NCBI GenBank assembly: GCA_965207225.1
Contig: CBDBLV010000005.1
Span: 1,568,001-1,632,000 of the forward strand
DNA: 64,000 nt
Reading direction: 5' to 3'
From: Dehalococcoidia bacterium
GTDB taxonomy: Bacteria; Chloroflexota; Dehalococcoidia; Plut-88900
Shown here: in pieces, positions 48,784 through 59,130 of the stretch
How positions within the stretch are numbered: the first letter of the stretch is position 1
Layout: each line of letters begins with the position of its first letter
Translations under genes and position numbers: made by a program
Notes under the pieces: model-generated
The model's database searches: none
Seen by the model: the letters and a program-made list of their open reading frames with translations, nothing else
What the model was told of the DNA's origin: nothing

Positions 48784-48989
48784 AGGACTTGTCCACTCAC
48801 GCCTTTTACCTCCTCCCCCCTTCCTCTCCCCAGTACTGAACTAGAGGCAGAGGTTGGTGCTTTAGCGCCAACCTCGGCCTCTGTTATTCTCTCCCCCTCT
48901 CCCTTAAAGGCCCTAAGGGAGAGGGGGATAAAGGGGGTGAGGGTTCCCCTGTGGGGCCGGGGGGCATCCTCTCCTCCCAAATGGGACAT

Positions 48990-49018
48990 TTGCACTACCT
49001 GAACCCCCGTGCTATACT
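48990..49018 (+). promoter_or_regulatory. Sigma70-like promoter of MSRI cassette A
   Basis: TTGCAC-17bp-TATACT with extended TG. Confidence 0.65.
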
Positions 49019-49080
49019 ACACCCCAGGCCGCCGACCTCACACCTCGGCGCCCATCACAATGCAGGATCAAAGGAGTCCC

Positions 49081-49722
49081 ATGAGCCGCATAAGCCTATA
49101 TAGGCCCCGTCTCAGCCGAGCGGTATCCCGCCGCCCGGCCACCGGCACGCGCCTCCTCCTAACTCCCTTTTCATTCCCCGTCCTGCACCCCAACACCCAC
49201 AACAAGCGCTGCCCAAAGGCCCAACGCCTGGGCCTTCGCAGCGATCAATCACCGCCCCGCCCTCAATACTGCCTGGTCCCCGTGACCGGCAACGGAAGGT
49301 TCCTTAACTCAAATCGGCTAGCTCTACTTCATGGCCAACACCGTAGAATCAGCGCCCCCGTTCCAGGTCGAATCTACGTAGCCGGCATCGACCTCGCCGG
49401 CGAATCGGAACAACCGGGAGACGTCCGTCTCCAGGGCTTTAAGCCCACCCAAGATTCCACCGTCGTAACTATCGGCGAACTCCAAATGCTTGATGACGGC
49501 CTCGGCTCCAGGCTCCCCGCCCTCTCTGTCGTCGAGCGCCATTGGTGGACGGGGAAGCCCCACACCGAGACCTTTTCGGGCCTTGTCCACCTTCTCAAAG
49601 ACGTTTGGGGCTGCCGCAGGGTGGTCGTCGACGCCATTGGCATTGGCGCAGACGTAGCCGCCTTCCTGCCTAAGACCATAGGACCTTCCATCGTCGTTCC
49701 CCTCACCTTCACCGCCCCGACC
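49081..49722 (+). pseudogene. MSRI leader fused to a terminase large-subunit nuclease fragment
   Basis: AAAGGAG RBS; YVAGIDLAGE, DSTVVTI and VVVDAIGIG RNase H-like terminase motifs; no ATPase domain; frame then runs into repeats. Confidence 0.6.
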
Positions 49723-50312
49723 ATTTGCCCCCCCACCCCAATCGGGAATCCATCTCGAGGGGTGGAGCGGCCGGCCTCCGTAATGACTACCGGCGGGTCG
49801 CCCACCCCAGGGGAGGGGTCGCTCACCCTGAAGCCCCTCGAAGAGCCTGCCCCGATTCCCTCGAGGGGGTCGAGCGGGGTGGCCCACCCCCGACTGTCAA
49901 ATCTCGCCAGTCATCCCCGCCCACCCTATGCCGTCCTCCCTTCCCCTCTCCCCAGTATTGAACTAGAGGCCGAGGTTGGCGCTAGAGCGCCAACCTCGGC
50001 CTCTGTTATTCTCTCCCCCTCTCCTGTAGAGCCATCAAGGGAGAGGGGGACCAAGGGGGTGAGCGTTCCCTTCCTTCTTCTGAGACTGAGGCGCCCCTCT
50101 CTGTCGTCCCCGACTCCGGTCAAGAATCCCTCCTTTCCTCCCCCAGTATTGAAACTAGAGGGAGCAGTTGGCGCAGGCGCGCCAACTGCTCCCTCTGTTT
50201 TTCCTTCCCCCTCTCCCTTAAAGGCCCTAAGGGAGAGGGGGATAAAGGGGGAGAGGGTTCCTTCCCCGCCCCCTGCGACACGCGAAGTCCCCGGAAATCC
50301 CTTTAAGCGTCG

Positions 50313-50364
50313 TTCAATCAAACCAGCTACGAGTTCAATCAACCTTCAATCAACGTTCAATCAA
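50313..50364 (+). repeat. Four phased TTCAATCAA direct repeats
   Basis: Copies at 50313, 50334, 50345 and 50356. Confidence 0.8.
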
Positions 50365-50508
50365 AACCCCCCACCCCCAACCGAACAAAAGCGGGGTGCG
50401 TCACTGCCCAACAAGGGCAGGCTGTTGACGCAATCTCCTTTTGACATTACCTTGTCGGAGCAATTGCCGGACTGAGAGACCCCAACACAACAACTTGGGA
50501 GAAGCACT

Positions 50509-51750
50509 ATGGGCAGGTCATTTCCAAAGACGGGCGCCAACTGGGACGAGCTCAAGGCTCGCCTGACCGAAGGCCGGCAGGAAGACGTCGACTGGCGCAC
50601 CGGGAAGATATCCGGCCTCCTCTACTACGCCGGCGAAGACGTTATAAAGGTCGCCCATGACGCCTACGCCATGTACTTCAACGAAAACGCGGTCTACCCG
50701 AAGGTGTTTCCCAGCCTTGCCAGGATGGAGGAAGAGGTAATCGACCTGAGCCTGGCGCTCCTGAACGGAGGAGAGCAGGCATCCGGGAGTATGACGACGG
50801 GAGGCACGGAAAGCATCTTCCTGGCCATCAAGACGGCCCGGGACTGGGCCCGGGCCAACAAGCCGCCCAACGGGACCCCCGAGATATTGATGTCCAGGAC
50901 GGCCCACCCGGCCTTCGACAGGGCCGCCGAGCTGATGGACCTTAAGGTCGTGCGCCTTGACCCGGGCCCCGACTTCCGCGCCGACGTTGACGCCATGTCC
51001 GACGCTATCACCGATAACACCATAATGATGGTCGGTTCCGCTCCCGAGTACCCCCACGGCATCGTCGACCCCATCACAGAGCTCGGCAAACTCGCCCAGT
51101 CCCGAGACCTATGGCTCCACGTCGATTGCTGCATTGGCGGCTTCATCGCCCCCTTTGTAAGGAAGCTCGGCTACCCCATACCCGACTTCGATTTCTCGGT
51201 GCCTGGGGTCAGGTCCATATCGGCGGACGTGCACAAGAACGGCTACGCGGCCAAGGGCGCCTCGACCGTCCTCTACAGTAATGCCGAATACCTGCAGTAC
51301 CAGGGGTTCGAGTTCGACCAGTGGTCGAAGGGCTACTACGGGACGCAGACGTTCGTTGGGAGCAGGCCGGGAGGGGCGGTGGCCTCGGCGTGGGCAGTCA
51401 TGAACTACCTTGGAGAAGAGGGTTACATGCGGATTGCCCAGGACGTAATGCACATCCGGGAAGCACTGATGGACGGTGTGAACCGGATAGGTGGGCTGGA
51501 GACCTACGGCGACCCCCAGCTGACCATCTTCACCTACGGGTCGAAAGAGTTCGACATCTTTGCGGTGGCGGACGGGATGGTGGATGCGGGGTGGTACACG
51601 AGCAGGATTCAAGAGCCCAATGCAATCCACATGATGCTATCGTTGATCCAGAAGCCGGTCGTGGAGGAGTACATCAGTGACCTTTCCTACGTGGTGAGCA
51701 AAGTACGGGAGGGTGGTCTGGTGTCGGAGAACAGGAAGATCATCTACTAG
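50509..51750 (+). CDS. PLP-dependent decarboxylase/sphingosine-1-phosphate lyase-like protein
   Basis: TTGGTESI, WLHVDCCIGG, SISADVHKNG. Confidence 0.92.
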   Translation: MGRSFPKTGANWDELKARLTEGRQEDVDWRTGKISGLLYYAGEDVIKVAHDAYAMYFNENAVYPKVFPSLARMEEEVIDLSLALLNGGEQASGSMTTGGTESIFLAIKTARDWARANKPPNGTPEILMSRTAHPAFDRAAELMDLKVVRLDPGPDFRADVDAMSDAITDNTIMMVGSAPEYPHGIVDPITELGKLAQSRDLWLHVDCCIGGFIAPFVRKLGYPIPDFDFSVPGVRSISADVHKNGYAAKGASTVLYSNAEYLQYQGFEFDQWSKGYYGTQTFVGSRPGGAVASAWAVMNYLGEEGYMRIAQDVMHIREALMDGVNRIGGLETYGDPQLTIFTYGSKEFDIFAVADGMVDAGWYTSRIQEPNAIHMMLSLIQKPVVEEYISDLSYVVSKVREGGLVSENRKIIY

Positions 51751-55216: not shown

Positions 55217-55898
55217 TTGAGCAATTCTAACGGCAGATCGTACGTCAAATATACGTTTTTCAAAGCGGACAAGGAGTGGCGGAGACTATCGGGTGGCGAG
55301 AGGATGCAGGGGAGAGAACAGTTCGCTGCGATTCTGGATGAGTGCTCGGACAGGTTGATGGTCGGTCGGAATCCGGGGGGATACCGATCTGCTGATCTGG
55401 AATGCGTGCGATGAACTGGAGCCGATACAGCAGTTGACGGCGGCGCTTTTGGGGTCGGGGCTGGGGAAGCACCTAGATATCCCGTATTCGTACCTGGCGA
55501 TGACCCGGAAGTCGATTTACACGGAGAAGCACCGGCACCCGGGGCAGGAGGGGAACAGGCTGAAGATCACTCCAACGGGAGCCCGGTACCTGTTCGTCTA
55601 CCCGTTTGTGAAGACCCGGGCGTGGTATATGCTGGACAAAGCGGAGAGGCAGCGGATGATGGATGCGCACATCACCACGGGGCACAAGTACCCATCGGTG
55701 AAGATCAACACCAGCTACTCCTTTGGGTTGGACGATCAGGAGTTCATGGTCTCCTTCGAGACGGACAGCCCGTCGGACTTCCTGGACCTCGTGATGGAGC
55801 TCCGCGGGACGGAGGCTAGCAGCTACACACTGCGGGACACGCCGATTTTCACGTGCGTATCCATGAGTCCGATGGAGGCGCTGGAGATGCTGGGCTAG
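55217..55898 (+). pseudogene. Chlorite dismutase/coproheme decarboxylase family gene split by a frameshift
   Basis: YTFFKADKEWRRL in one frame; GIRGDTDLLIW...VYPFVKTRAWY...YSFGLDDQEF in the next; switch at ~55361-55365. Confidence 0.8.
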
Positions 55899-57052
55899 CC
55901 GACTGCTGCCTGCTGCCGGGACTCTACGAGGGGGATGACCCTCTCCGCGAACAACTCGATGGAGCGCATGACGTGGCGGTGGTCCAGACCCGGCATGGCC
56001 ATAAGGGTCAGCAGGCTGTCCAACTGATACTCCTCATCAAGCTCGCGGATCTTGGCGGCGACGAACTCGGGATCTCCGATGAAGAGGTGGTTTTTCTCCA
56101 TGAGGAAGTCGAACCAGGGTTTCACCTTGTCCTCTTCGGTGAGCTCCTCGCCGGGTTCGAGGTAGATGGAGCGGGGTCTGGCGCCGCTGGTGTACTGAGC
56201 CAGGGCGTTTAGGGGGCCTTCGGCGATGCGCCGGGCCTCTTCGTTGGTCTCGGCGACGAAGGTTGTGCGGAGAAGGGCGCAGTCCTCGCCGAGAGCCATA
56301 GGCCGACCATTGACCCGGGTTGCGGCCTCCTGGTAGGTGGAGAATACCTCCCAAAGGCTGCCCCGGGCCCTGAGCCAGGTCATAGGTTTGAGCCCGAGCT
56401 CGGCGGCGACGACGAAGCCAGGGGTCTTGTCGACGACGTTCCAGAGAGGGGGGTGGGGGGACTGGAAGGGCTTGGGCTGGATGGACATGCCGATATACTC
56501 GCCCTCTTCGGAGCGGTACCTGGGGTCGCGCTCGCGCCAGGAGTGGCTGTCTTTAACGCCGGGGTGGGGGAAGCTGTAGAACTCTCCGTCGTAGGTGAAG
56601 GGGTCCTCGGTCCAGGCCCTTTTCATAATATCTACGGTCTCGGTGAAGACGCGCCAGTTCTTCTGCTCGTTGCGGCGGTCTGCTTCGATGTTCAGGTTGG
56701 TGAGCTCCCGGGGGAAGATGCCGCGCCCGACGCCGCACTCGACGCGTCCGCCGCTGAGCTGGTCGAGCATGGCGACGTCCTCGGCGACGCGGAGGGGGTG
56801 CCACTGGGGGACGATGAGCGCTGCAAGGCCAAGCCGGACATCGGTGGTCTTGGCGGCCAGATGGGAGAGGATCATCATGGGGTTGGGGATCCCGTCGAAA
56901 CCCTCGCCGCCGAAGTGGTGCTCGCCGAGCCAGACGGCGTTGAAGCCCGCCTGCTCGATGGCGAGAGTCTGCTCGGTGAGTTCGGAGAGGATCTGGTTGT
57001 ATGGGAGTCGGAGGTCGGGGTTGTCCAGAGTGGAGAAGAAACCGAATTTCAA
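55895..57052 (-). CDS. LLM-class flavin-dependent monooxygenase
   Basis: VWLGEHHF, HPLRVAEDVAMLDQLSGGRVECGVGRG, PKPFQSPHPP. Confidence 0.95.
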   Translation of the reverse strand: MKFGFFSTLDNPDLRLPYNQILSELTEQTLAIEQAGFNAVWLGEHHFGGEGFDGIPNPMMILSHLAAKTTDVRLGLAALIVPQWHPLRVAEDVAMLDQLSGGRVECGVGRGIFPRELTNLNIEADRRNEQKNWRVFTETVDIMKRAWTEDPFTYDGEFYSFPHPGVKDSHSWRERDPRYRSEEGEYIGMSIQPKPFQSPHPPLWNVVDKTPGFVVAAELGLKPMTWLRARGSLWEVFSTYQEAATRVNGRPMALGEDCALLRTTFVAETNEEARRIAEGPLNALAQYTSGARPRSIYLEPGEELTEEDKVKPWFDFLMEKNHLFIGDPEFVAAKIRELDEEYQLDSLLTLMAMPGLDHRHVMRSIELFAERVIPLVESRQQAAVG

Positions 57053-57235
57053 GATCAGACTCCTGCTGCCTTGTGTAATCGGGCCTCAGGTTAGCACAGG
57101 CGGGAAAGGGAGTCTATCAGCAGGGGGGAGATGAGATGAAGGTCGGTCTGGGTGTTGTGGGGGGAGGGGTGGGATTATGGGCTAGCGGGGCAGGTCCTTT
57201 CTATGGGCGGGACCCGCCACGCCCCCGCACCGCCC

Positions 57236-57400
57236 TGGATTCCCGACTGCTCGGGAATGACGGATTGGGAAGGGATGGATTCCGGCTCGGGGGCCGGAAT
57301 GACGGAAAGGGGAGGGGTGAGTTGCGGGGTCAGGGGTGAGTGTTTCGGAGGGATGGATTCCTGCCTCCGCAGGAATGACGAAGAAGAGGCGGGAATGACG
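57236..57400 (-). repeat. Cluster of CGTC-type REP palindromes
   Basis: TGGATTCC-n-GGAATGACG at 57236, 57276 and 57354 plus a half copy at 57389; the stems differ but stay paired. Confidence 0.85.
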
Positions 57401-57419
57401 GTGTAAAGGGAGGGGAATG

Positions 57420-57827
57420 CCAGCGCCCCCTCATCGGCGTAAGCCGGGGCGTCGGGGACCGGAACGTGGGCAATCGCCTGGGCGTTGGCCCGGGCAATCT
57501 TCGCAAGGCCGGGTAGGGCGTTGCGGGCGTACCTCCGCGCAAAGGCGCGGGCATCCACAGCGGAGGGGAAAGCTCGCAAAGGGTTAGCTGTGGGAAATAC
57601 ATCTGCGGCGAGCCTGGGCAGGCATCCACGGCGGAGGGGGGCACTCGCGGGGGTTAGCCGTGGGAACATCTGCAGCGAGTGAAAGCAGGCATCCATCCGT
57701 ACGCCGCTATGGGCGCAGGTGGGGTCCTTCCGCGGAAAACCGCGGGCATCCACGTCCGGGTGGGGCAGCAAGGGAAGATGCGGCTCCTTAGTGACGCCGG
57801 ACGGCAGTAGTCGAGAGGGGGCGCTGG
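57420..57827 (+). ncRNA. Candidate large structured RNA (unrecognised family)
   Basis: 13-bp closing stem, nested long-range helices, duplicated module with compensatory change, G-U pairs and a GNRA loop on the + strand. Confidence 0.5.
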
Positions 57828-57969
57828 GCTTTGAACTTCCACGGGGGAAGGGTGAAGGGCTGAGGGACACGGTAGGCGGAAAGGTAGTGGGGAGGAGGTG
57901 CGTGTCGGCAGAGGGTCGGTCCCATACCGACCGGGTGCGACGGGGCCATGTGAGGCCTATGCGGCTCAT
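57822..57969 (-). CDS. MSRI leader peptide, copy B (N-terminal conserved part; frame stays open to 57175)
   Basis: AAAGGAGTCCCATGAGCCGCATA identical to copy A; 17/34 aa identical with synonymous changes. Confidence 0.5.
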
Positions 57970-58032
57970 GGGACTCCTTTAGTCCTTTCCTGGTTTGGTG
58001 GCCCGGGTAACGAGGCCGGTGCCACGAACATA

Positions 58033-58060
58033 AGTATAGCACATACATTTACAAAATCAA
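58033..58060 (-). promoter_or_regulatory. Sigma70-like promoter of MSRI cassette B
   Basis: TTGATT-16bp-TATACT with extended TG on the minus strand. Confidence 0.65.
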
Positions 58061-58109
58061 TAGGTGGGGGTGGTAATGGAGGAACGCGACGGATTGCAAA
58101 AGCGTGGTC

Positions 58110-58291
58110 CGCCCCTGCTCATACTTCGAGTGGCCTCAGCATGAGCGGCCCAACCCCAAGAAGGAAACTCCCTCACCCCGCCCCAGATTCCTCGCGGGGC
58201 ATCGGAATGACAGGGGAGAAGGCTGTGGGTGGGGTGAAGGATGGTTGTGGGTTGGCGGGCGTGAGAGATCTTTCGCGGGGCATCGGAATGG
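58110..58291 (-). repeat. Inverted copies of the 48412-48783 REP-like unit
   Basis: GCTCATACTTCGAG..GCCTCAGCATGAGCGG at ~58117 and AGATTCCTCGCGGGGCATCGGAATGAC at 58185-58211; degenerate copy at ~58266. Confidence 0.85.
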
Positions 58292-58341
58292 GATAAAGGG
58301 AGTAGGGTAGGGGGCTGTGCTAAAATCGGCGAATCCGGGCA

Positions 58342-59130
58342 TTGAAGAGCGAGGCATTTACGCGCATGCAGCTACCTCACATAGGACTGGATATTGACGG
58401 ACCGGTGGCCGTTTTGACGTTGAGGGGAGAGGATGAGTCCAATCGTGTGACGGCGGCAATGGGGGAGGACATGGCGGCGACGGTTGAATGGGTCAGGGAC
58501 GACGAGAGTGTGCGGGTTGTGGTGGTGACGGGGGAGGGTGCGGTGTTCTCCGGGGGGACAGAGGCGGCGGTGAGGGAGGTCGTGGGCAGGGGTGTTGACA
58601 GGGCGCCGGGCGCGGCCCGCCATATCGCTCAACTGGCTTTACCGGTGATTGCGGCAGTCAATGGGGATGCGCTGGGGTTGGGGCTGGAGCTGGCGCTGGC
58701 CTGTGACCTTAGGGTGGCGAGCGAGGAAGCCGTTTTCGCGATGGACCAGATCAAGTACGGAATGATGTCGTGGGACGGCGGGACGCAGCGTTTGCCGAGG
58801 CTGGTGGGCCGGGGGCGGGGGGCGGCGATGGTTTTAACCGGGATGGAGGTGGATGCCGAGAGGGCGCTGGAGATGGGGTTGGCGCACGCCTTGTTTCCGA
58901 GGGAATCGGTGGTGAAGGAAGCCATTGCGCTGGCGCACAGAATTGCGAACCATGCCCCCGTGGCCCTGGAGTATGCAAAAGAAACGATAAACAAGGGGAT
59001 GGACATGACGCTGGACCAGGGGCTCAGGCTGGAGCAGGACCTGACCGTGATATTGCAGTCGACGGCAGACCGGGCCGAGGGAATCCGGTCTTTCCTGGAG
59101 AAGCGCAAGCCAGAATTCCGCGGCGAATAG
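58342..59130 (+). CDS. Enoyl-CoA hydratase/isomerase
   Basis: PVIAAVNGDALGLGLELALACDLR, GGTQRLPRLVG. Confidence 0.93.
   Translation: MKSEAFTRMQLPHIGLDIDGPVAVLTLRGEDESNRVTAAMGEDMAATVEWVRDDESVRVVVVTGEGAVFSGGTEAAVREVVGRGVDRAPGAARHIAQLALPVIAAVNGDALGLGLELALACDLRVASEEAVFAMDQIKYGMMSWDGGTQRLPRLVGRGRGAAMVLTGMEVDAERALEMGLAHALFPRESVVKEAIALAHRIANHAPVALEYAKETINKGMDMTLDQGLRLEQDLTVILQSTADRAEGIRSFLEKRKPEFRGE

Follow-up and report, generated by a model that had tools for sequence, protein, structure and literature searches.

A probable mobile, promoter-bearing structured-RNA cassette with a stop-free reading frame in a Dehalococcoidia genome

The window analyzed here is a stretch of 64,000 nucleotides from a Dehalococcoidia bacterium (assembly GCA_965207225.1, contig CBDBLV010000005.1, positions 1,568,001 to 1,632,000 of the forward strand), and positions are counted from its first letter. 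In the spacer between a luciferase-like monooxygenase (LLM) gene and an enoyl-CoA hydratase (ECH) gene lies a nested 408-nt fold at 57420–57827, which a preliminary description made from the letters alone had taken for a free-standing large RNA. We find that this fold is the 3′ part of a longer repeated unit whose architecture, pairing (seen through compensatory changes), promoter, Shine-Dalgarno (SD) box and start codon are conserved. That the unit is read from the minus strand, extends from promoter to closing helix, belongs to a multicopy family and is mobile is highly probable. The whole statement, that it is a mobile, promoter-driven, minus-strand structured-RNA cassette with a transcript translated through an amino-acid-neutral frame, is held tentatively, as a serious possibility. 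The features of the unit are as follows.

57418–58069, minus strand: whole repeat unit, from the promoter to 2 nt beyond the closing helix, delimited by alignments of 3 and 15 copies.
58033–58060, minus strand: σ70-like promoter (TTGATT, 16-nt spacer, TATACT, with TG ahead of the −10 hexamer) at the 5′ edge of the conserved unit.
57876–58031, minus strand: conserved 155-nt 5′ domain, a hairpin and then a GGAAAGG/CCUUUCC closing helix around three inner helices; 137.3 bits with covariance model R1.
57967–57979, minus strand: SD-like box and start of the ‘MSRI’ frame (AAGGAG, UCCC, AUG at 57969), read from the sequence.
57889–57903, minus strand: anti-SD-like segment ACGCACCUCCUCCCC, predicted to pair with GGAG and with AUGAG..CGC.
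57175–57969, minus strand: stop-free AUG frame of 264 codons, continuing through the entire body and for a further 80 codons.
57420–57827, minus strand: A-type 3′ body, a multi-hairpin domain inside a 13-bp closing helix, from a shuffle-tested fold and a 15-copy alignment.
57420–57432 and 57815–57827: arms of the closing helix, CCAGCGCCCCCTC and GAGGGGGCGCTGG, 13 bp exact, a perfect inverted repeat in the repeat search (pair I3).
57547–57695, minus strand: two tandem modules of ~70 nt, each CCCAC(G/A)GC...GC(C/U)GUGG, then GAUGCC and a hairpin.

The extent of the unit follows the homology between copies. The 408 nt are present three times in this genome, with identities of 100, 98, and 92%. 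When the 1289-nt intergenic region was used as the query, the two other copies matched its positions 366–1021 and 358–1015 (~655 nt) with 98% and 92% identity, and the block common to a three-way alignment runs from 57418 to about 58069 (~650 bp). A search of 60 relatives and this genome found full units in five of the nine genomes of the genus, at 3, 3, 3, 4, and 2 copies, i.e. 15 copies from five species with 73–100% identity. In the alignment of these 15, homology starts at the −35 hexamer and stops abruptly 2 nt past the 3′ arm of the closing helix, right after GAGGGGGCGCTGGCA, while the flanks are unrelated or consist of other repeats. A free-standing 408-nt gene is not what these boundaries describe, as homology continues to about 58069. 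Two oligomer scans added no copies: a 16-mer of the closing helix found at least 120 metagenome stretches, none of those listed matching the unit by BLAST, the 16-mer being too unspecific, and an 18-mer of the 5′ domain found no stretch among viral contigs.

The 5′ part of the unit is more widespread than the whole. Its positions 466–612 have 14 further copies in this genome, making 17 loci in total, and all 17 have the promoter, the hairpin and the domain closed by GGAAAGG/CCUUUCC. Beyond the 5′ domain, the loci diverge into three unrelated bodies, called A (3 loci), B (7 loci), and C (7 loci). A covariance model of the 155-nt head gave 121 full-length matches, 9–19 in each of the nine genomes of the genus; the same model had no match in three genomes from other genera of the family, nor in 145 further genomes of the class (109 other genera). 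The cassette family is genus-restricted and multicopy, a member consisting of a promoter, the common 155-nt 5′ domain and one of at least three unrelated bodies, each closed by a long helix. The window contains a second member, of the B type, with a long frame of its own.

48990–49174, plus strand: B-type family member, with a promoter (TTGCAC, 17-nt spacer, TATACT; 48990–49018) and a 5′ domain (49020–49174; 147.7 bits with R1).
49081–50475, plus strand: stop-free frame of the B-type copy, 464 codons from AUG with 0 stops, read as an open reading frame.

Pairing in the 5′ domain was examined on a structure drawn by hand and tested with controls, as RNAalifold on a 41-sequence alignment gave only 12 pairs with the hairpins misaligned. 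In an alignment of 100 copies, which was fitted to the covariance model and so favours the structure somewhat, 84.7% of the cells are paired, as against 36–48% when the partners are slid. Compensatory changes occur in 24 of the 40 pairs, as against 7–12 with slid partners, and none of 500 shuffles reaches 24. Within this domain, the SD box is paired with a CCUCC segment in the single-sequence folds of both the A-type and the C-type RNA. The pairing on the anti-SD side is kept (91.6% paired in helix 3 and 98.6% in helix 4), and these helices are near-invariant, so covariation neither supports nor refutes them. The ATG is kept in 112 of the 113 copies in which the start motif was located. Independent minimum-free-energy folds of the A-type and C-type RNAs arrive at the same plan, in which the 5′ domain with its GGAG:CUCC pairing is followed by a body closed by a helix of 12–13 bp, the z-scores being −5.25 and −7.40 in the two folds. 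The conserved unit ends at the 3′ arm of this helix in A-type and C-type copies alike.

The 408-nt body is a strongly folded object. None of 100 dinucleotide shuffles folds as well on either strand, the z-score being −5.90 for the plus strand (−216 kcal/mol) and −5.52 for the minus strand. Much of what the preliminary description had seen here stood up: the closing helix is exact over 13 bp, the three local hairpins named after CGGC, CCGCGC, and CCGCGG are all in the window sequence, and the duplication of ~70 nt reappears as repeat families D4, D5, and D10 with spacings of 67–71. The compensatory change reported between the duplicated modules is also real, with G-C in one module and A-U in the other, and the difference is kept in 14–15 of the 15 copies. 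The fourfold GCATCCA junction appears three times as family D1, and each of the three copies of this genome has GGATGCC four times on the other strand.

Conservation of the helices was counted as Watson-Crick cells over the 15 copies. The closing helix is complete (195/195 cells), and GGCGTC/GACGCC (87/90) and ACGTGG/CCACGT (81/90) are largely so. Among the hairpins, CGGC has 58/60, CCGCGC 90/90, and CCGCGG 88/90 cells, the last with a GC-to-CG swap in 5 of the 15 copies. The module helix CCACGGC/GCCGTGG has 104/105 cells; its counterpart CCACAGC/GCTGTGG is in all 15 aligned rows, the column count being blurred by an alignment shift of one column. The nested helices of the preliminary description fared unevenly. 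GGCGTC/GACGCC, ACGTGG/CCACGT, and GGCGTAC/GTACGCC are present in the window, but GGCGTAC/GTACGCC (62/105 cells) and TCGCCTG/CAGGTGG (49/105 cells, with full pairing only through G-U on the plus strand) are not kept across species.

An alignment fold of the body contains 107 pairs with 97.4% of the cells paired. Compensatory changes are found across the copies: 11 pairs have one, as against 1–4 with slid partners, a number that 25 of 500 shuffles reach, and the compensatory cells number 31, as against 12.3 ± 2.5 in shuffles, which none of 500 reaches. The covariation is concentrated in a few hairpins, namely that at 57476–57495, the CCGCGG hairpin and two short helices. As the closing helix, GGCGTC/GACGCC, and CGTGG/CCACG do not vary at all, covariation neither supports nor contradicts them. 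Variable columns make up 22% of the paired and 65% of the unpaired columns, a comparison that is partly circular as the fold seeks conserved complementary segments.

The preliminary description saw no signature of a known RNA, and Rfam agrees. A scan of 56500–59000 on both strands with Rfam 15 at E ≤ 10 gave four matches, each far under the gathering score of its family; of those that overlap the unit, 2dG-II scored best (15.1 bits, gathering score 60, E 8.3). By the covariance models in that scan, the stretch is not a member of RNase P, tmRNA, group I or II introns, OLE, GOLLD, ROOL, HEARO, or the riboswitches. A large, conserved, modular folded element outside the Rfam families is thus borne out.

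On the question of strand, the preliminary description and our results part. It had proposed a stand-alone 408-nt scaffold or sponge RNA on the plus strand, antisense to the MSRI transcript. The plus strand folds slightly better, the alignment fold has more G-U cells there (203 vs 147), and the GCATCCA motif recurs. The raw G-U count thus agrees with the earlier claim, but the excess is as expected for a G-rich strand (41% G), and on the pairs shared by both strands it is gone (10 vs 8), which is indecisive. The helix that needs plus-strand G-U, TCGCCTG/CAGGTGG, is the one that is poorly kept. In 57000–58400, two promoter-like sites are found where shuffles predict 0.3, both of them on the minus strand and none on the plus strand. 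As the unit ends 2 nt upstream of the plus-strand 5′ arm, any plus-strand promoter would have to lie in sequence that is not conserved. None of the results speaks for a sponge or for a scaffold, and the plus-strand account is very improbable.

Because the minus strand alone has promoter-like sequence, with one site at the very edge of the conserved unit, and a comparable site (at least 9 of 12 positions matching) lies directly upstream of the 5′ domain in 115 of the 121 family members, the fold is most likely part of the transcript that carries the MSRI frame, rather than antisense to it. The 5′ domain also distinguishes the strands: its alternations of U-A with U-G (51/43), A-U with G-U (67/15), and G-C with G-U (59/12) pair on the transcribed strand only, and would be A-C mismatches on the other. 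From the promoter, transcription would start near 58026. The promoter position, the SD-AUG and the strand-specific pairs of the 5′ domain together suggest that the element is a minus-strand transcript of ~609–610 nt from 58026 to 57418.

In the frame that opens at the conserved AUG, stops are avoided and the amino acids drift neutrally. In 14 of the 15 A-type copies, there is no stop between the AUG and the unit end, as against 1–8 stops in the other frames. The AUG-to-end lengths of these copies are 552, 555, 558, 564, 567, and 618 nt, all multiples of 3; the exception, 566 nt, is the copy with four stops. Genus-wide, among the 113 of the 121 copies whose start the motif pattern located, the first 184 codons are stop-free in 105, as against 0 and 5 in the other two frames, and the first stop comes after a median of 292 codons, as against 0 and 26. 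The residues show no such maintenance. Variable columns are spread over the codon positions as 80, 81, and 77 in the 15 A-type copies, and GC content is 0.69/0.62/0.72 by codon position, as against 0.64/0.42/0.85 in the neighbouring gene. The mean ratio of nonsynonymous to synonymous substitution rates (dN/dS), taken over 10 pairs, comes to 0.99 in the AUG frame; the wrong frames give 1.07 and 0.87.

These results bear on the possibility that the frames beginning MSR... are real genes, encoding fast-evolving disordered proteins rich in Pro, Ala, Arg, and Ser with a conserved N-terminus of ~27 residues, with the folds being a by-product of inverted repeats in the genes. An open frame with start signals is what a conventional gene would have, and here promoter, SD box, AUG, and long frame come together. 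The indels keep the frame. It takes up most of the distance to the following gene, with a median of 297 codons before co-oriented genes (n = 85) and 281 codons before convergent ones (n = 25), and neighbours are oriented as for ordinary genes (85 co-oriented to 25 opposite). Against this, purifying selection on residues is absent by dN/dS, by third-position bias and by GC at third positions, and there is no codon periodicity. Moreover, the duplicated modules of 70–71 nt are read in different frames, the hairpin at codons 4–9 swaps residues freely and keeps its pairs, and the conserved unit has no stop codon, which leaves the C-termini arbitrary. In the A family, the frame closes on average 53 codons past the unit end (14 copies), as against ~55 expected from base composition. 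Pfam and PHROGs gave no family below E 0.01 for the A-, B-, and C-type frames, and only 5 protein clusters among 5.8 billion predicted proteins match the N-terminus, which means that gene callers rarely call these frames. Genes for disordered proteins are therefore an unlikely explanation, if one with real points in its favour.

The length of the frame does not depend on the neighbour. Because it is equally long before convergent and co-oriented genes and has no fixed phase with the next gene (29/28/28), the open frame belongs to the cassette itself and does not reflect coupling to a neighbour. A translational fusion to the downstream gene was rejected on the same frame relation.

The unit is insertion-polymorphic. 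The LLM-ECH spacer has an A-type unit both here, where it measures 1289 nt, and in the closest species (genome G008), where it measures 1281 nt, and in genome G007 a C-type unit lies upstream of the LLM gene. Where the spacer has no unit, it measures ~306 nt (G001), 137 nt (G002), or 115 nt (G005), and in 6 of the 8 other species no 5′ domain is found within 1.5 kb upstream of the LLM gene. The filled site has ~1.2 kb of composite repeats where the empty sites have ~37 nt, and no clear target-site duplication is visible. The preliminary description had counted many repeat-like copies, if joined with missing transcription, as an outcome against it; the many copies are indeed there, with 3 copies of the unit and 17 family members in this genome.

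Mobility was allowed for in the preliminary description, which had offered a folded single-stranded DNA (ssDNA) mobile unit as an alternative. In its fuller form, this explanation takes the unit as a non-autonomous DNA repeat, akin to a miniature inverted-repeat transposable element (MITE) or a repetitive extragenic palindrome (REP), whose hairpins act in ssDNA during copying, with promoter and frame as side effects or passengers. Many copies with presence/absence polymorphism are what a MITE would show, all 15 copies have the 13-bp inverted repeat unchanged, the unit sits among nests of short hairpin repeats, and both strands fold equally well. A MITE would have terminal inverted repeats at both ends of the unit, but the 13-bp repeat spans 57420–57827 only, bounding the body, and the other end (~58069) is the promoter. 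Filled and empty sites give no evident target-site duplication, and a search of this genome (92% complete) for the REP-associated Y1 transposase (PF01797) found none. A conserved promoter, an SD-AUG and a stop-free frame are hard to explain without expression, and the 5′-domain alternations, in which G-U pairs form on the transcribed strand only, make a function in ssDNA less likely still. Mobility itself is highly probable, and the purely DNA-level explanation is improbable, somewhat more so than genes for disordered proteins.

Two narrower candidates were rejected. REP or REPIN sequences are palindromes of 20–40 nt, as against a unit of ~650 bp, and PF01797 is unmatched in this genome. A retron was rejected as the four frames with an RVT_1 domain lie elsewhere and the genes adjoining the 17 copies are metabolic or ribosomal. 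The four frames are at C2:158087-158773, C5:1548409-1549095, C5:1553608-1554405, and C5:1671488-1672288 of this genome (G000); two have identical scores in 586-aa frames, two are in frames of ~641–652 aa, and none adjoins a family member.

The surroundings of the unit are rich in other repeats. Short hairpin repeats of the form GGATTCC...GGAATGACGG flank it at 57236–57405 and 58185–58290, and the whole intergenic query gave 84 matches over all five contigs, mostly to these short flanking repeats. Downstream of C-type units (L036, L038, L039, L043, L044, L046, and L048), there are runs of TTCAATCAA-containing repeats and a hairpin repeat CTCTCCCCCTCTCCC...GGGAGAGGGGGA, which is also found in the window at 48890–48930.

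The unit reads toward the monooxygenase gene (55895–57052, minus strand), and so it could be a long structured leader that regulates the co-oriented gene downstream, leader translation controlling read-through. The next gene is co-oriented in 14 of the 17 copies here and in 85 of 110 genus-wide (25 opposite), the frame ends a median of 117 nt before the open frame of the downstream gene, and SD sequestration resembles an expression platform. However, co-orientation was rejected as a sign of leader function and is uninformative, because ordinary neighbours share the bias, a share of ~77% being ordinary among bacterial neighbours, and because the frame is equally long before convergent genes. 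A riboswitch or dedicated cis-leader would be expected before orthologous or related genes, but the monooxygenase gene lacks the unit in most of the other species, as given above, the genes downstream of the copies are mutually unrelated, and the monooxygenase gene keeps its own −10-like box near its start. A leader function is thus quite improbable, below the DNA-repeat explanation.

As for the neighbouring genes themselves, the luciferase-like monooxygenase belongs to a large paralogue family, with 16–17 matches at E < 1e-60 in each of five related genomes. Upstream of the enoyl-CoA hydratase gene, a TGCTAAAAT box at 58311–58341 (also at loci L051–L053) is kept in filled and empty spacers and forms an extended −10 in the same style as the promoter of the element.

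RNA libraries contain sequence of the element, as the preliminary description had proposed to check. Contigs from two sponge metatranscriptome libraries of different studies cover it, one of 424 nt over 57542–57957 with 19 differences and one of 256 nt over 57454–57708 with 18 differences. For the flanking genes, the RNA contigs give only pieces of 31–44 nt with several mismatches, and missing cover there counts as no evidence. Among the sequencing runs in which the sequence occurs, some are labelled sponge metagenome; others have small shares, and habitat is read from the sponge-labelled ones alone.

Returning to the structured-RNA cassette, we conceived a course of events that would join its parts. 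The 408-nt fold would be the family-specific 3′ domain of a minus-strand RNA of ~610 nt (about 58026 to 57418), with the promoter being part of the repeated unit, and the functional product would be the RNA. Ribosomes loading on the nascent SD-AUG could traverse the C-rich transcript regardless of the residues encoded, and their passage could protect it against nucleases and Rho for as long as the closing helix still lacks its 3′ arm. The RNA would then fold compactly, with the conserved CCUCC segment sequestering the SD box. C makes up 41% of the minus-strand RNA and G 26%, and the genome encodes a Rho homologue. In its most specific form, the idea is one of ‘translated non-coding RNAs’, a mobile family with an amino-acid-neutral stop-free frame and a self-sequestering SD, in which a single pioneer ribosome escorts the polymerase before the RNA folds into its helix-closed form. 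Translation would then act as a chaperone of transcription and folding for an RNA product. Both statements of this specific idea are speculative, and we regard them as doubtful.

Several points weigh against the cassette as a translated structured RNA. Translation of the frame, the part of Rho and the ends of the RNA are all deduced from sequence. A folded body and a translating ribosome are mutually exclusive, and the proposed model needs an ordered sequence of events. A later function of the RNA is proposed by none of the results. The frames of B-type and C-type copies stay open far past the recognisable unit (464 codons in the B-type copy of the window), which the escort idea does not require. 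Of the 107 body pairs, 75 are invariant across the 15 copies; because the long-range helices of the body and the SD/anti-SD helices never vary, they fit the model but are unproven. For the body, neither folding energy nor G-U counts settle the strand. Finally, the RNA contigs, which show neither strand nor ends and come from libraries that may contain DNA, are a hint of expression.

The element is described by no Rfam family, protein family, or paper that we found, and the nearest in kind are modular intergenic repeats and large ornate RNAs. Among the former, the pneumococcal BOX and Neisseria Correia elements are modular intergenic repeats of ~100–300 bp, bounded by inverted repeats or fixed end-modules, with the number of modules varying between copies. 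Like them, the unit is multicopy, intergenic and modular, has no internal transposase and would give transcripts with stem-loops, some copies supplying promoters. Unlike them, going by their descriptions, it is 0.5–0.65 kb long, runs from the start of a promoter to the end of a long closing helix and has a conserved SD-AUG with an open frame, and it is not known to be related to them in sequence. Among the latter, OLE, GOLLD, ROOL, and HEARO have functions that are unknown or were found only recently. The unit resembles these RNAs in its ~600 nt, many conserved hairpins, nested fold and promoter, but it has no match in Rfam 15 at E ≤ 10 beyond those below the gathering scores, is genus-restricted with 9–19 copies per genome, and combines interchangeable bodies with a translatable frame.

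Leader frames offer a further comparison. In leaders of the tnaC and mgtL type, a short frame is translated so that the position of the ribosome controls the access of Rho to a C-rich leader, the peptide often being unimportant. Known leader frames have tens of codons, end at a stop and serve one operon. The frame of the unit, by contrast, extends over 180–460 codons, meets no stop inside the conserved unit and is part of a mobile repeat. Attenuators of this kind and coupled transcription and translation are the subject of a review (PMC7858274) and of PMC7815308.

Reused ‘mobile’ promoters of prokaryotes, highly similar promoter-bearing upstream regions before unrelated genes of one genome, are the subject of PMC3575422. 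Compared with such promoters, the reused piece of the unit is far longer, with a structured 5′ domain, a start codon and a folded body of 400 nt added. Literature searches on intergenic repeats of SAR202 and sponges and on non-coding RNA of sponge-symbiont Chloroflexi gave no title on such an element. Three traits set it apart from both repeats and ornate RNAs: it is bounded by a promoter and a helix, its bodies are interchangeable behind a common head, and its frame is maintained but unconstrained.

If the account is true, one sponge-associated genus of Dehalococcoidia has 9–19 strongly promoted structured RNAs of ~0.5–0.65 kb per genome that are undescribed in libraries, and the common 5′ domain with its swapped bodies would be a natural system for the exchange and spread of RNA modules. 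Conserved pairing and a start signal together with a stop-free frame at dN/dS ~1 are an unusual combination, which separates selection for translation from selection on the product and makes it testable whether ribosome passage itself serves an RNA. The finding also draws attention to sequence of a kind that is mostly passed over by gene callers and that would, without it, be set aside as intergenic repeats.

Some observations on B-type members remain. The frame of the copy in the window, whose two other frames have many stops, crosses several other types of repeat and stops 11 codons short of the ATG of a gene at 50509–51750 resembling pyridoxal-phosphate (PLP) decarboxylases. Inside it, ~130 residues at 49345–49740 (plus strand) look globular, with GC by codon position of ~0.65/0.45/0.73. 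Pfam and PHROGs have no match for this stretch, and a first impression of likeness to a terminase nuclease domain found no support there; the stretch may be the relic of a gene. At another B-type locus of this genome (L041, C4:332641), there are four stops in the AUG frame, and the +2 frame is open for the remaining length (399 codons in the locus and 471 in a longer stretch), so that it looks as if an early frameshift had moved the maintained frame.

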